From a virus (taxonomy: Duplodnaviria > Heunggongvirae > Uroviricota > Caudoviricetes), in the IMG/VR virus record IMGVR_UViG_2541047945_000002: a stretch of 5,707 bases of DNA; one strand, 5' to 3'. The notes beneath the pieces were generated by a model. That model was not told the origin of the DNA. It saw only the letters and a list, made by a program, of their open reading frames with translations, and made no database searches. Numbering within the stretch: position 1 is the first letter of the stretch; every line of letters starts with the position of its first letter. This document shows positions 1 through 5,707 of the stretch, piece after piece. Position numbers and translations under genes: made by a program.

Positions 1-2
1 AA

Positions 3-53
3 GCAGAAAAAGCTTATTATGCTTCCATCGGAAACGATGATCTGGCAGCCTGA
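3..53 (+). CDS. C-terminal fragment of IS3-family transposase OrfB (5'-partial, runs off window start)
   Basis: Frame 3 translation ...[16 protein letters not shown] stop (TGA 51-53), immediately upstream of the terminal inverted repeat. Assignment from recalled IS3-family OrfB C-termini; not searched. Confidence 0.5.
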
Positions 54-70
54 GTTCACAGATAAAATAC

Positions 71-95
71 TCTCCAGGAAACCCGGGGCGGTTCA
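71..95 (+). repeat. Right terminal inverted repeat (IRR) of the IS629-like element
   Basis: Reverse complement tgaaccgccccgggtttcctggaga matches 5478-5502 tgaaccgccccgggaatcctggaga at 22 of 25 positions. Confidence 0.75.
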
Positions 96-1929
96 GTCTG
101 AGTTCAATTCCTTCCTGTTGTCGCTTGTTGTAATCGTTTATTGATGAATTTAGGACGTCCTGAGCAATTTTTTCTGCTTGAAGTACGCCCAATTGCTGCT
201 TTAATCGTGCCAGCCTTTTATTTTGAGCTCCGCCATCTCCAATGCCACCTAACCCGAAAACTCCGGGTCGGGTATTTTTTTCTATTTCATCAATTTGACG
301 GAGAACATCTGAGATTTTTTGATCAAGGGAGGCCTCACGGCCAATGTCCAGCATGGAATCCCATGCCCATTTTGCGGAGTCTGCGACAGCTTTCCATGCA
401 GTCTCAAGATAACCAAGATTTTCTTTAATCTGGTTGGTGCGCTGGATCATTGAGGATGAGTATGCTTCTGTCGCAATGCGGGCGGCCTCCTGCTGGTTCC
501 CTTCATCCTGTAGCGCCTTAATCTGGTTATAAGTCGCAATTGTCAGAAAATGGTACTGATCATTAAGTTTTGATATGGCACTGACAGGATCCTTTGCAAT
601 TTCATTGAAGTCATTAACCAGTTGTTCGGTTGATATTCCTGTTACTTCGCTCGTTTTTACTATCGCTGTCGTCACTTGCTCCAGCGAACTGCTCGCTACC
701 TTTCCCGAACGCACAAGCTGGTTTAATACTGCCGCCGCAGCGCCAGTTGTCGAATCAGCCGCATTCCCGGCACGTTGAGCTATATCGGCCAATTGCCCGC
801 TGGTTGTCCCCAACTGATTTCCGGTAAGAATAAGAGATTTATTAAATTCGTCCTGCTCCTGAGAGCCTTTATAGTAAGCCAGTCCTAAGACCCCAACGGC
901 TGCTGCGGCCAGGGTAAAAGGATTAATTAATCCCAGCACATAAGAACCTACACCTTTGATCGCCGGGCCAATCCCACCGAACATATCTTTTAGCTGGCCG
1001 CCCTGCTGCATTAACACCATAAATGGCGACTGACCAGTGGACAACCCAACAACAATATCCGTCATTTGTGCAGGCAACATGCGCATAGCAAAAGCCGTTT
1101 GTTTTGCCGACATTCCGGTTTTGCTTAATTGTGATTGAGTAACCTCAAGCTCACTCCGCATAGCACGAAGTTTTCCAGAAAGCTCCTCATACATTTCAGG
1201 AGAAAGCATCCCCTTAGCTTTTGCTTCATTGAGCTGTTTCTGTTGTTCTACCAGACGATTAAAAGCAGTTCCGACAGGATCAAGTTGAGCAATCAGACGT
1301 TGCAAAGCAACAACCTGTTCATCATGCGCTTTTGCTGCTTCTCGCTCTGCCTGAGCCTCTCCGGTAAGCTCTCGCCGTGTTTCCTGTATTTTTCGGCTAT
1401 AATTCTCAAACTGAGAACCATTTATTTTCCCGGATGCAAACGCAGCATTAAGTTCATCATGCTGTTGTTCAAGATTTCTTAGCGCCGCAGCCAGAGGGTC
1501 GATCTTGTCCAGCATTCTTTGAAAGGCCTGAGCCTGCGCTTCCTGCTGGGCGGCAGCAAGTTTTCCGGCCTTCTCGGCTTCTCTCTGCGCTTGCGCAACC
1601 CCGCTCAATTCCTCTGTGGTTTCATTAAGTTTACGGACAAGAAATTCATATTCTTCTTTATCAATAAGCCCTTTATCGAAAAATTTCTTTAATTCAGAAT
1701 AGCGTCGACCGACAGTATCAATTGCGGCACCAACTGGATCAATAGCTGCTTTTAATTTTGCGAGCGCGTTCTTCTCATCTTCTGTTGCCTTAGTCACTTT
1801 CCCTGCGCTATTTGCAGCAGTTTCCCCAGCCTGCGTCATTTTGACTAATGAGGAGGTCAGATTGTCAGCATTATTTTTCGCTCCAGTGCTATCAATAATT
1901 ATTGCGAGACGCGAGGTTTGCTCTGCCAT
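96..1929 (-). CDS. Tail tape measure protein (lambda gpH-like), N-terminal ~611 codons; reading frame runs into the IS at 95/96, so the gene is interrupted
   Basis: ATG at 1929-1927 with AGGAG 9 nt upstream. Translation [20 protein letters not shown]... contains [40 protein letters not shown] and [29 protein letters not shown], which closely resemble conserved lambda gpH blocks (recalled, not searched). Hydrophobic [33 protein letters not shown] segment and coiled-coil-like repeats are typical of tape measure proteins. No stop before the IS junction. Missing from the ORF track because the frame is open to the window edge. Confidence 0.85.
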
Positions 1930-1944
1930 TTATTAAAACTCCTG

Positions 1945-1975
1945 ACAACAAAAAACCCACCGCGAAGTGGGTTTC
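1945..1975 (-). terminator. Putative rho-independent terminator/attenuator between the chaperone genes and the tape measure gene
   Basis: Minus-strand RNA reads GAAACCCAC-TTCGCG-GTGGGTTTTTTGTTGT: a GC-rich stem (CCCAC/GTGGG, extendable to 8 bp) followed by a T6 run, about 20 nt upstream of the tape measure SD. Confidence 0.4.
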
Positions 1976-2094
1976 AGGCGACATAATAGTAGATATAGCG
2001 ATTACGAGGCCACGCAATGCTTTTCTCCAGGAGCATCATCGATTTAATTAAAGACACCATCACATCTCTGTAACAGAGTGTACGTAATTAACAA

Positions 2095-2415
2095 CTACAC
2101 ACACTGCTCCTGAAAATACTGGTCATCCAGTGCAAAGATCACTGCTTCAAATTCATCGCGCTCAATCAATACCGGATGAGTGGCTAAATATTCATTTATC
2201 TCTGTCAGAGATAAAGGCAAAGGCACCCCAGCCATTCCAGCATAACGTCGGGCACGGGATATTACCGAATAGGCGTACAACAACTCCTTAAGCACCGGGT
2301 CTATTTCTGGTTCCGGTATCGGTGGCAACCTGAGTTTTTCTCGCTTCCATCTTGCCTTTTCCCCCCTTTCTCCCCCGAACTCCGATAACCACCGCTGGGC
2401 AGCTATGGCTTTTTT
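2095..2415 (-). CDS. gpT-like extension of the tail assembly chaperone, expressed as a G-T fusion by -1 frameshift; no convincing independent start
   Basis: The -1 frame relative to the gpG-like gene is open from the slippery site (2409-2415) to TAG at 2097-2095, encoding KKAIAAQRWLSEFGGERGEKARWKREKLRLPPIPEPEIDPVLKELLYAYS...QEQCV. The ORF track's 77-aa ORF starts at a TTG inside this frame. Position between chaperone and tape measure matches lambda G/T organisation. Confidence 0.7.
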   Translation of the reverse strand, partial: KKAIAAQRWLSEFGGERGEKARWKREKLRLPPIPEPEIDPVLKELLYAYSVISRARRYAGMAGVPLPLSLTEINEYLATHPVLIERDEFEAVIFALDDQYFQEQCV

Positions 2416-2864
2416 ATCGTATCCTGCTTCTGCTGCTCTTTACCCTGGGCGATGCTGGCTGCTTCTGCAAGGATCTGCCAGTACAACTCTGGATTCTGCT
2501 TAAGCAGCGCGATCCCTCGTTCTGCCGTATATTCCAGTGCAACCTCAACACCATTAACCAGTTCACCAACCCCTTTCCAGTCTTTCAGCAGATAACGAGC
2601 GGCATTATCAATGAGTAAATCATCAACAGAATCCACCTCGGAAACCTTTGAAATATCAAACTCCTTCGTTCCGACGTGCAAACTGGCATCCATTTTCTCA
2701 ATGTGGCGACGGATTAATGCATTACGGGAGCGATACTGATCGTTATCGCTGCTTGCCACCAACAGTTTTAACCCGTCTACAGGTTTTAAGTCCTTCATTG
2801 GCGTAAACCAGCGTTCTCCACCAATGATAATTTTCTGATTAAGAATAAACATCCATAACCTCAT
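2403..2864 (-). CDS. Tail assembly chaperone (lambda gpG-like); start may be the second ATG at 2852
   Basis: 153-codon ORF directly between major tail and tape measure genes, acidic C-terminal half, ends in the slippery site. GAGG lies 6 nt upstream of the second ATG (MFILNQ...), so the true start may be 2852. Confidence 0.7.
   Translation of the reverse strand: MRLWMFILNQKIIIGGERWFTPMKDLKPVDGLKLLVASSDNDQYRSRNALIRRHIEKMDASLHVGTKEFDISKVSEVDSVDDLLIDNAARYLLKDWKGVGELVNGVEVALEYTAERGIALLKQNPELYWQILAEAASIAQGKEQQKQDTIKKP
2409..2415 (-). other. Programmed -1 ribosomal frameshift slippery heptamer A AAA AAG
   Basis: Minus-strand ...ACG ATA AAA AAG CCA TAG: an X XXY YYZ heptamer in the last codons of the gpG-like frame, with the -1 frame open for about 100 further codons. 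Confidence 0.65.
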
Positions 2865-2912
2865 TCAATGCGTCCCCCTGTAGGGCAGTACCACAGGAGG
2901 AATAACGGAAAA

Positions 2913-3875
2913 TCAACTAATCGCCTCAGCACTGGCTTTTGCGATCACGGCAGCCGGGGAATTTTTTTTTCTGGTTATCGTAGGTGCTTCATCTGCTGCG
3001 GTAATGCTCAATTGAACCTGGATAATGTCGCTATTACCCCCATCAGGCCATTCACCTGACACCTGAACCTTCGGGAAACTGAAAGTGTATGCCCCCTCTC
3101 CATTCGAAAGCGTGAAGCTGAACGGAACTGTTTCTCCAGTCAGTGTTTTACTCCAGATTTCCCACGCGGCTTTAGACCATGAAAGCGTCACCGTACCGGA
3201 CGGTGTAAAAGTAGTCGGAATATTTGCTCCTGCATAAGGCGAGCCAGTCCCGATACAACGCTGTGTCTGGAGTTTGTTATCGAACTGAATATCAAAACTG
3301 TCGATACAAAAACCGTTACCTCCGGCAACACCATTCAGGCTTACTGCTGAAACCTCCTTAAACGAATAACGTAGCTTTCCTGCACTATCCACAGGTTCGC
3401 CTTTGATAAAATTCGTATCATCGGCCTTTGATTCCCAGTCCAGTCCGGCAAAGGTTACGGTCGCTGTAATATCGCCGTCGTTAGGGATCTGCATTTTCCA
3501 TGAGCCAACCTGCGCTCCTCTGACGACAGAGGCAATTCCGACATCGGACGCATAGGTCGCCAGAGAAAATGTTATTCGCTCATTCCCCATTGTCAGAGAA
3601 TCGCCTGACCATTCCGCGCCGAAACAGGATGCAAGAAAATCATCATGTTGACCCCAGCGAAATTTGGTACCAACATCACCGCCGACATCCACAGTGCCAG
3701 GCGTCGCCCCCTGAGCCATCCGGGAGCCACCAATCTCATTATTTTCGCCTTTATTCTGGGTGGGTTTTACTCCCCAGCTTGTGCGTTTTAATAAACTCCA
3801 GTCACCACTTGCTGGCGTAGTGCCTGCAACCGTCTCCCGGATAAATGCCGAGATAACCTTTGCACCTGAACTCAC
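2913..3875 (-). CDS. Major tail tube protein (320 codons, GTG start)
   Basis: Largest ORF, sited between tail terminator-like and chaperone genes. Start is GTG (plus 3873-3875 cac) with AGGAGG 6 nt upstream. Gly/Thr/Ser-rich, beta-rich composition typical of tail tube proteins. Assignment by synteny and composition. Confidence 0.65.
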   Translation of the reverse strand: MSSGAKVISAFIRETVAGTTPASGDWSLLKRTSWGVKPTQNKGENNEIGGSRMAQGATPGTVDVGGDVGTKFRWGQHDDFLASCFGAEWSGDSLTMGNERITFSLATYASDVGIASVVRGAQVGSWKMQIPNDGDITATVTFAGLDWESKADDTNFIKGEPVDSAGKLRYSFKEVSAVSLNGVAGGNGFCIDSFDIQFDNKLQTQRCIGTGSPYAGANIPTTFTPSGTVTLSWSKAAWEIWSKTLTGETVPFSFTLSNGEGAYTFSFPKVQVSGEWPDGGNSDIIQVQLSITAADEAPTITRKKNSPAAVIAKASAEAIS

Positions 3876-3901
3876 AGGAGCCTCCTATGTCATTAATTGC
3901 G

Positions 3902-4294
3902 CTAGAGCGCGCGATATGGAATTTGAAGATTAAGCTGGAACCAGCCATTCTTTTCGCCAACGGCTATTGAGGAAACAGCCTGGTAACTGAGACGATCGTC
4001 ATCCTGAAACTCAAACAGTTCCCGCAATTTATCGGCTGTCTCAGTAATGAGTTTTGAACCAGAACCTGCGGGGACAAATAACTGAATAATGATTATCCCC
4101 GTGCGATAAACAACCGGCCCCGCGCCAATTTCATTAACTCCAGCCTGCCCGGGAATATTACTTAACCGCGCCCAGATTAACTTACCGGAAGGATCGAACG
4201 TTGGCCCGTTCGGATACAATACGTCTTTTCCATCAATAATCGTCTGTGCCGTCATTCTGGAAATAACCGTATTTCTGATTTCAGTAAACTTCAT
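3902..4294 (-). CDS. Tail terminator protein (lambda gpU-like)
   Basis: 130 codons immediately upstream of the major tail gene. N-terminus MKFTEIRNTVISRM resembles the gpU N-terminus as recalled (MKHTELRAAV...). ATGA start/stop overlap with the upstream gene. Confidence 0.55.
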   Translation of the reverse strand: MKFTEIRNTVISRMTAQTIIDGKDVLYPNGPTFDPSGKLIWARLSNIPGQAGVNEIGAGPVVYRTGIIIIQLFVPAGSGSKLITETADKLRELFEFQDDDRLSYQAVSSIAVGEKNGWFQLNLQIPYRAL

Positions 4295-4671
4295 TTGTAA
4301 GCCTGTAAAACACCATGAAAAGCGTTGGCATACACGCCAGTTGGCGCTTGTTGTGAATGACCGTTTTCAAGAGCCTCTGCATAAGGAAGGTTATTCTGGA
4401 TATAAATAACCCCGTAATTTGCAGCTTTCGAAATAACCCCGATCCCACGCTGAACAGCAATCGTACCGTTCGGATCCACGTTATCAGATATACCAAAATC
4501 GGGATGCTGTAACGACACCAGGTTGTTATTTCTGAAACGTCCGGTATCAACCGGAGCAGCAATATCAATAGCAGTAAGAATCTGCATAGCGATGTAGCGA
4601 ATCTTCAGCCCTACATCTTCCTCAATCATCCCGGCAAATATTGACGGTTCTATATCCCATGCCTTTGCCAT
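4291..4671 (-). CDS. Tail completion / head-tail joining protein (HK97 gp10-like)
   Basis: 126 codons; position and size fit the HK97 gp10 / lambda gpZ slot. TAAATG junction with the upstream gene and ATGA overlap with the downstream gene indicate translational coupling. Confidence 0.5.
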   Translation of the reverse strand: MAKAWDIEPSIFAGMIEEDVGLKIRYIAMQILTAIDIAAPVDTGRFRNNNLVSLQHPDFGISDNVDPNGTIAVQRGIGVISKAANYGVIYIQNNLPYAEALENGHSQQAPTGVYANAFHGVLQAYK

Positions 4672-5055
4672 TTACGCTCTCCTTAACTGGATAGAGTAAA
4701 CTGATGCGGAAGGATCTACACTTGCTGTAATTACCTCGTATCGTTGTAACTGCCTTGATACAGGATCATAAATCTCAATAATATGGTCGACAGCTGGTTT
4801 ATCCGTAACCTCGCATACCAGAGCGGTTAATTTAAGGTCACCATGCAAAATATTAATCCCATCAATTCTGCCCAGCTTATAACGTGTCAACACGCCTCGC
4901 CCGGTATAGATTGCGGTGGATTCGCCGCCAGTTTCCGTCACAGGATCCCAGTGCCGGTGCGTAACGTAAGAACCAGAAAAATCACTCACGGCGTCCGCTA
5001 AATCCTCATCAAAAGCAGCGGCAACCTCTGACTGAATCTCTTCACGAAGCCCCAT
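4672..5055 (-). CDS. Head-tail adaptor / head closure protein (putative)
   Basis: 127 codons; start overlaps the upstream stop (TAATG). Synteny with HK97-like head-tail joining genes; no sequence motif confidently recognised. Confidence 0.45.
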   Translation of the reverse strand: MGLREEIQSEVAAAFDEDLADAVSDFSGSYVTHRHWDPVTETGGESTAIYTGRGVLTRYKLGRIDGINILHGDLKLTALVCEVTDKPAVDHIIEIYDPVSRQLQRYEVITASVDPSASVYSIQLRRA

Positions 5056-5450
5056 TATCCCCCCCTCACAACCCTGACTTGTGAGCGACTAAGTCCGTAC
5101 GGTTTCAGCAGTGCTATCGCAAGCTGTAAATCGGGTTCAAGCAATGCAGTGCTGTTTGCTGGCAACTCAGAAAATGATTTCGATACACTGACCCCGTCAG
5201 CCGACACGGCTTTACTGATAACAACGCCAGAATCATTTTTCTGCTGAAACAACTTACCGAATGAGGCAATTCTGGCTGCATATGCTCCCGCAAGTTTTAC
5301 CTCTTCCGGAATACGGGATGGGTTAATTTTCAGGTTGAAGCCATTAAGCCAGGCATTAGCCATTAAAACAGCTTTATTTTTAGCGTTCTCACTCGTCCAG
5401 GCGTTCCCAAACGCATTATCAACGTCATCACAGGTCACGTAAGTGATCAT
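5055..5450 (-). CDS. Head-tail connector protein (gp6-like, putative)
   Basis: 131 codons; ATG at 5450-5448 with AGGAG 8 nt upstream. First gene of the head-tail joining block; N-terminal flavour of gp6-like connector proteins. Assignment mainly by position. Confidence 0.45.
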   Translation of the reverse strand: MITYVTCDDVDNAFGNAWTSENAKNKAVLMANAWLNGFNLKINPSRIPEEVKLAGAYAARIASFGKLFQQKNDSGVVISKAVSADGVSVSKSFSELPANSTALLEPDLQLAIALLKPYGLSRSQVRVVRGG

Positions 5451-5477
5451 GTGTTACTCCTGAGTTTTCCAGCCCAT

Positions 5478-5502
5478 TGAACCGCCCCGGGAATCCTGGA
5501 GA
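5478..5502 (+). repeat. Left terminal inverted repeat (IRL) of the IS629-like element
   Basis: 25-nt sequence matching the reverse complement of 71-95 at 22/25 positions. Confidence 0.8.
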
Positions 5503-5531
5503 CTAAACTTCCTGAGAAAGAGGTAAACAGG

Positions 5532-5707
5532 ATGACTAAAAATACTCGTTTTTCCCCTGAAGTCCGTCAACGGGCAGTCCGTATGGTTCTGGAAAGTCAG
5601 GGCGAATATGACTCACAATGGGCGACAATTTGTTCCATTGCTCCAAAGATTGGCTGTACGCCGGAGACTCTGCGTGTCTGGGTTCGCCAGCATGAGCGGG
5701 ATACCGG
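5532..5707 (+). CDS. IS629-like transposase OrfA, N-terminal part (3'-partial)
   Basis: ATG at 5532; 58 codons with the helix-turn-helix-containing N-terminus characteristic of IS3-family OrfA; open to the window edge. Confidence 0.85.

Follow-up and report, generated by a model that had tools for sequence, protein, structure and literature searches.

IS629 abuts a truncated tail tape measure gene in a Rac-type prophage of Escherichia coli UMEA 3609-1

The tape measure protein of phage lambda, gpH, initiates polymerisation of the tail tube and sets its length, and its C-terminal helix lies in the tail tip, where a trimer of gpI holds it (PMC10721106). For phage TP901-1, the C-terminal 60 residues of the tape measure are required for infectivity (PMC5099701). 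The insertion sequence IS629 has been described from enterohaemorrhagic E. coli (EHEC) O157:H7, including the Sp and SpLE elements of strain Sakai, where it shows a preference for prophages, inactivates genes and is associated with adjacent deletions (PMC3271280, PMC9943667). In O157 genomes 62% of the IS629 copies lie in prophages, and the target duplications are 3-4 bp in length (PMC3271280); in EHEC strains, precise excision of the element is promoted by IEE (PMC9943667). A further point of comparison is the Rac prophage of E. coli K-12, whose ynaA (tmpR), located next to ydaY, is a truncated copy of the gene treated here. It is cut at residue 311, its remnant overlaps lomR, no IS is found at the junction, and the nearest one, IS5Y, lies within lomR.

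The window, meaning the whole stretch of DNA that was analysed (5,707 nt), is an entire draft contig of E. coli UMEA 3609-1, both ends of which fall inside copies of IS629; the IMG/VR entry is the same contig, trimmed, and equals window positions 1-5572. The element is the one known from O157:H7, whereas the host is a Swedish clinical isolate (UMEA series) and the target is a tail gene of a Rac-type prophage. K-12 Rac YnaA is identical at 311 of 312 positions to the start of the window protein, and ydaY lies in the same neighborhood. By these two markers the prophage is of the Rac type, is fuller than K-12 Rac, and carries a different truncation of the same gene, at 611 residues and at the tip of an IS629 rather than at residue 311. 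It retains tail tube, terminator, and head-tail genes. In K-12 and in the window alike, the gene is truncated within a decaying prophage.

Open reading frames and a Pfam profile search show the minus strand of the window to be a phage head-tail and tail module. Reading from the head side, it begins with four small genes (5450-5055, 5055-4672, 4671-4291, and 4294-3902), the last of which is a tail terminator. Next comes an intact tail tube gene (2913-3875; Phage_tube_2, E=9e-32), the exact product of which is common in E. coli. The intact ydaY gene (2403-2864), encoding 153 amino acids, stands where lambda has its G-type tail assembly chaperone; NCBI gives the name YdaY to the identical protein, seen on at least 1000 contigs, and the name is used also in RefSeq annotation of relatives. 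Frame analysis identifies a T-like frame (2095-2439) overlapping the end of ydaY, with a similarity to Phage_TAC_18 (E=3e-4) that falls below the curated cut-off. A slippery sequence, A_AAA_AAG, occurs in frame at 2415-2409 on the minus strand, two codons before the ydaY stop, and a -1 slip opens the frame at 2439-2095. The arrangement resembles the programmed frameshift conserved in G/GT-type tail chaperone pairs, and is located just upstream of the tape measure gene. In RefSeq, this region is annotated with ydaY only; some relatives (E28 and FDAARGOS_1249) have in addition a short hypothetical gene in the gap that precedes the tape measure gene. Seven complete genes or ORFs of the window, other than the tape measure gene, were looked up, and all are common, intact variants, each found on at least 1000 contigs.

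The tape measure gene starts with an ATG at 1929-1927 on the minus strand, and its frame remains open for 643 codons, as far as window position 1. The first 611 of these (96-1929) are the 5' part of the gene, cut at codon 611/612, and the encoded residues differ at two of 611 positions from the intact 1077-residue protein of strain 144. Pfam model TMP_2 matches residues 267-471 (E=3.9e-82) with 275 bits, where the cut-off is 30.2. Absent from the frame are the C-terminal 466 of the 1077 residues (43%). The two domains found beyond the break in the intact orthologue are TMP_4 (671-748) and Tape_meas_lam_C (858-932, E=3.9e-26). The latter has no Pfam match in the 611 residues of the window and is present only in intact orthologues; its absence is the lesion itself, and so is not evidence against homology.

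Gene order supports the same assignment. The progression from tail tube through ydaY and the T-like frame to the tape measure, and then, in intact relatives, to the tail tip genes, fits a lambda-family tape measure; in these relatives the 1077-residue protein is followed by M, L, K, a tail assembly protein in the position of lambda I, and J. Lambda gpH has the same role and the same position, after the G/GT-type chaperone pair and before M-L-K-I-J, and it shares the C-terminal domain Tape_meas_lam_C with the intact orthologue, although the part retained in the window is recognised by TMP_2 and by no lambda-specific model; the comparison with gpH covers position and domains. Lambda gpH is 853 residues long, shorter than the 1077 residues of the intact orthologue. 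By gene order and domain content together, the gene is a lambda-family tail tape measure. A first-pass annotation, made from the DNA letters alone, had described a gpH-like tape measure gene starting at 1929, open for about 611 codons, and running into an IS3-family, IS629-like terminus at 95/96 with gtc at 96-98. Translation and alignment to the intact gene show each of these positions to be exact, and membership of the lambda family is borne out by the retained TMP_2 domain and by Tape_meas_lam_C in the intact orthologues. The same annotation had held the C-terminal part of the protein to be displaced or lost, and had proposed aligning the 611 residues to intact tape measure proteins as a way of estimating how much is missing. 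That alignment gives 609 of 611 residues identical, with 466 of 1077, including both TMP_4 and Tape_meas_lam_C, cut off from the frame.

For the insertion sequence, the reference was the 1310-bp element on pO145_10942_1 (L004:1501-2810), whose CDSs are annotated as IS629 OrfA and OrfB. Window positions 1-95 (plus strand) are identical to the last 95 nt of this reference at 94 of 95 positions, and match a 1310-bp IS copy in strain E28 equally well (94/95). This right end begins with the last 17 codons of OrfB and their stop codon (1-53), the stop ending at 53. After these comes the terminal inverted repeat of the right side (about 55-95), whose final letters, ...CCGGGGCGGTTCA, end at 95. At the opposite end of the window, positions 5478-5707 agree throughout with the reference over its first 230 nt (230/230). 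Over both ends, then, 324 of 325 visible nucleotides agree with annotated IS629, a comparison covering 25% of the length of the element. Under the ISfinder convention, copies of the same IS share about 95% nucleotide identity or more. The element is IS629 itself rather than merely IS629-like, a refinement of the family assignment made in the first pass. Both tips carry TGAACCGCCCCGG, of the TG...CA type, and the two arms (55-95 and 5478-5518; 41 nt) are 78% complementary. The coding content of the element within the window is restricted to orfA codons 1-58 (5532-5707) and the 17 codons at the end of orfB. Full IS629-type copies in relatives are annotated with a programmed frameshift and an ALIL pseudoknot feature (spelled AL1L in the records); an Rfam scan of the window gave no match, and the pseudoknot falls outside the 230 nt present.

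Where the intact gene of strain 144 reads ...CTCTCT|GTCTGAGTTC (CTCTCT|GTCTGAG), the window reads ...GGGGCGGTTCA|GTCTGAGTTC, with the junction at 95/96 and the join between prophage and IS falling exactly at the IS629 tip (...GGTTCA). On the prophage side, positions 96-400 match annotated phage tail tape measure genes with 99.7% identity, and hundreds of the 5426 complete E. coli genomes searched carry such a match. On the IS side, positions 1-95 match IS3-family transposase loci in 4173 of the 5426, and therefore represent a repeat and not a chance resemblance. The first-pass annotation had allowed that the tape measure frame might natively continue through 1-95 in related phages. We rejected positions 1-95 as native tape measure sequence because the gene runs uninterrupted across the site, with different sequence at that point, in 693 of the 720 complete genomes that contain the surrounding 400 nt. 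The insertion site of the window itself occurs in none of the 5426 genomes. The exact left junction (GGCGGTTCAGTCTGAGTTCAATTC) likewise has no match in GTDB species-representative genomes, in JGI metagenomes, or in the complete E. coli genomes, and in IMG/VR it is found only on the trimmed version of this contig. For the ORFs that span the two junctions, 19-141 (plus strand) and 5457-5570 (minus strand), look-up gave no called gene.

The window contains two copies of a 9-mer, CTGAGTTCA, one in the right end of IS629 (50-58) and the other in the target flank (98-106), two nucleotides from the junction. It is expected 0.04 times per window, and no sequence among 200 shuffles contained two copies; it was noticed post hoc. 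The repeat could be chance, or could be a hint that the element inserted beside an IS-like sequence.

The second IS629 end (5478-5707, plus strand) is a left end in the same orientation as the first. Its left inverted repeat starts at 5478, the ATG of orfA is at 5532, and the element runs off the contig; the segment also gives 100% matches to CDSs named IS629 transposase OrfA. Adjoining it on the minus strand are the last seven codons and stop of a head-side gene (5454-5477), intact in strain 144 as a gene of 58 codons (L002:11360-11536). The cut falls after codon 51, at a junction that reads ...CCCAT|AGCC. Because this second end, 5.4 kb from the first, interrupts another gene, the IS lesions of the prophage number at least two. 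The 5.4-kb block of prophage DNA is thus bracketed by two IS629 ends in the same orientation, facing outward from the block, and this two-ended pattern is typical of short-read assemblies that break at a multi-copy IS. Such a contig offers a general lesson: where a short contig carries the two ends of one IS at its own ends, an assembly break is what it records, and the DNA beyond cannot be read from it.

The tape measure frame passes into the IS terminal repeat with no stop codon between the junction and the window edge, as the first-pass annotation had claimed, giving an open fusion frame (1-1929, minus strand) of 611 tape measure codons plus 32 antisense IS629 codons that runs off the contig. 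Since the frame leaves the contig inside the IS, its stop codon was inferred from other copies: extended with two independent full IS629 copies, one at a time, the frame is in both cases predicted to stop 21 codons past the contig edge, for a product of 664 residues, 611 from the tape measure and 53 derived from the antisense strand of the IS. The partial product of 643 residues is already on record as EQZ27867.1 and EQZ32715.1 (E. coli UMEA 3609-1, hypothetical protein, partial), from two NCBI contigs, and the predicted 664-residue product is found verbatim on one separate NCBI contig of 10,664 nt. The exact fusion allele is therefore known from GenBank/NCBI already. These records confirm the predicted stop, and they make misassembly unlikely. 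A search with the C-terminal 174 residues of the fusion returned mostly unrelated genes fused to the same IS629 tail; because many unrelated E. coli proteins end in it, the 53-residue tail represents the usual read-through of an in-frame IS629 right end. The current name of EQZ27867.1, hypothetical protein, partial, should be revised to tape measure protein, disrupted by IS629.

The same records bear on the suspicion that the assembly wrongly fused prophage reads to a collapsed IS629 repeat, the gene in reality being intact. The source is a short-read draft contig with a multi-copy repeat at each end, just where contigs typically break. Against this, the join is placed exactly at the IS629 tip, as transposition yields; the identical fusion appears under two protein accessions, and in its complete 664-residue form on the separate contig; and comparable junctions exist in finished genomes. 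We consider an assembly artefact exceedingly improbable.

Two other accounts, of about equal weight, concern what lies on the far side of the IS. Under a simple insertion, for which we estimate a chance slightly short of even, the remaining 466 codons and then M, L, K, I, and J continue directly beyond a 1310-bp IS629, behind a duplicated GTC, the GTC that adjoins the IS tip (96-98) being the candidate 3-bp target duplication. The lesion would then be recent and, in principle, reversible by precise excision. Several observations fit a young event: the prophage DNA flanking the junction is 99.9% identical to copies in which the gene is intact, the seven other genes or ORFs are common intact variants, and the IS ends are nearly identical to the reference IS629. 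Strain FDAARGOS_1249, in addition, has IS elements within the same gene with all of the gene pieces retained. A simple insertion predicts an IS629 left end (TGAACCGCCCCGGGAATCC...) joined to ...GCATCTGCTCTCTGTC, with the GTC duplication. The reciprocal junction, sought in IMG/VR as CTGCTCTCTGTC, zero to two further nucleotides, and TGAACCGCCCCGG (corresponding to a duplication of 3-5 bp), was not found there, although the collection includes this contig; the absence counts weakly against this account. Target duplications, moreover, are retained at fewer than half of the sites that IS629 occupies in O157 genomes (21 of 47; PMC3271280).

Alternatively, the right end of IS629 may mark the edge of a deletion or of recombination between two IS copies, with the 3' remainder of the gene, and perhaps M, L, K, I, and J too, gone or moved, a possibility that we rate no higher and no lower than simple insertion. 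Where complete genomes have an IS629-type right end no more than 90 bp from this one, downstream tail DNA has been lost every time, in five cases out of five. All five resemble the window in gene, IS family, and IS orientation, and differ from it in that the sequence beyond the IS is known, with the downstream tail genes deleted. Z1323CEC0004 and Z1323CEC0002 have their junction 2 bp away, with a second IS copy after it and then gpK; M and L are absent. For E28, E09, and WP7-S18-ESBL-09 the distance is 87 bp, and the far side of the IS in E28 abuts a gpJ without its N-terminus. The tape measure of K-12 Rac, truncated at residue 311 and joined to lomR, is a further case of loss, and the two direct-orientation IS629 ends that bracket the window are a substrate for such deletions. 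The cases in other strains, however, are independent events with other junctions and other IS isoforms, and they say nothing direct about this strain. Even the nearest of them, the Z1323 junction, was considered as the same event and rejected: it is offset by 2 bp, its junction bases differ, and its IS isoform differs from that of the window at three of 95 terminal positions.

Under either account of the far side, we hold with high confidence that IS629 abuts codon 611/612 of a 1077-codon Rac-type tape measure gene and that the truncated fusion probably blocks the formation of infectious tailed particles. Transcription and translation of the tail operon would yield the 664-residue product, its 611 tape measure residues followed by 53 antisense IS residues. 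That product would keep the N-terminal region and TMP_2, and would be without the C-terminal 466 residues that include TMP_4 and Tape_meas_lam_C. Because the C-terminus of the lambda tape measure sits in the tail tip, tail assembly would probably fail, the truncated protein probably being unable to nucleate assembly on the tip complex, and the prophage in turn probably being unable to make infectious tailed particles. That the prophage is tail-defective, as was proposed in the first pass, is probable, a sound reading of the known roles of tape measure C-termini. The defect need not be permanent: in strains that carry IEE, precise excision of IS629 could restore the gene should its 3' part follow the element directly, whereas any loss of DNA on the far side would preclude reversion. 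A Rac-type prophage may also be defective for other reasons that lie outside a 5.7-kb piece.

The same gene has been struck independently in other strains by IS1, IS5, and IS629. An IS1 is found near residue 585 (in a cluster of 41 sequences), an IS5/ISKpn26 near residue 634, and an oppositely oriented IS629 at about residue 667; the IS1 and IS5 assignments come from the read-through tails of those proteins, compared with IS end sequences. FDAARGOS_1249 contains nested ISKpn26 and IS629 insertions in this gene, with ISKpn26 named in the annotation. Counting that of the window (positions 90-100), there are three independent IS629-type right-end junctions, in the same orientation, within 87 bp, two of them 2 bp apart (L001:6001-6100 and L003:6001-6190 for the other two). 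Codons 585-667 of the tape measure gene might on this basis, and from the 9-mer shared between IS end and target flank, be proposed as a regional hot spot for IS elements, IS629 in particular, or the 5.4-kb block might be proposed to move, amplify, or excise as a unit, proposals to which we give little credence. Ascertainment bias, together with a long target gene that is not under selection, explains the clustering of junctions just as well. The case is real but is ordinary prophage decay, with no new biology; the locus serves as a clear, datable example of IS629 probably disabling a Rac-type prophage, and is otherwise of little import.

Some smaller features were seen alongside. A terminator-like hairpin at 1952-1975 on the minus strand, with a 10-bp stem (GAAACCCAC...GTGGGTTT) followed by a T run, sits within the tail operon, between the chaperone genes and the ribosome-binding site of the tape measure gene. 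Among the terminator-like sites of the window, whose total is not above that in shuffles, this one is the best. The non-coding stretch at 1943-2000, upstream of the tape measure start, contains an indel relative to strain 144 that shifts the base-by-base register, while the genes to either side are otherwise nearly identical in the two strains. Z1323CEC0004 (L001:3610-6095) has a full 1310-bp IS629-type copy and, immediately after it, a copy of 1176 bp that lacks its left end, so that tandem or IS-in-IS copies stand next to the truncated tape measure gene; they differ by about 4% from the copy in E28.
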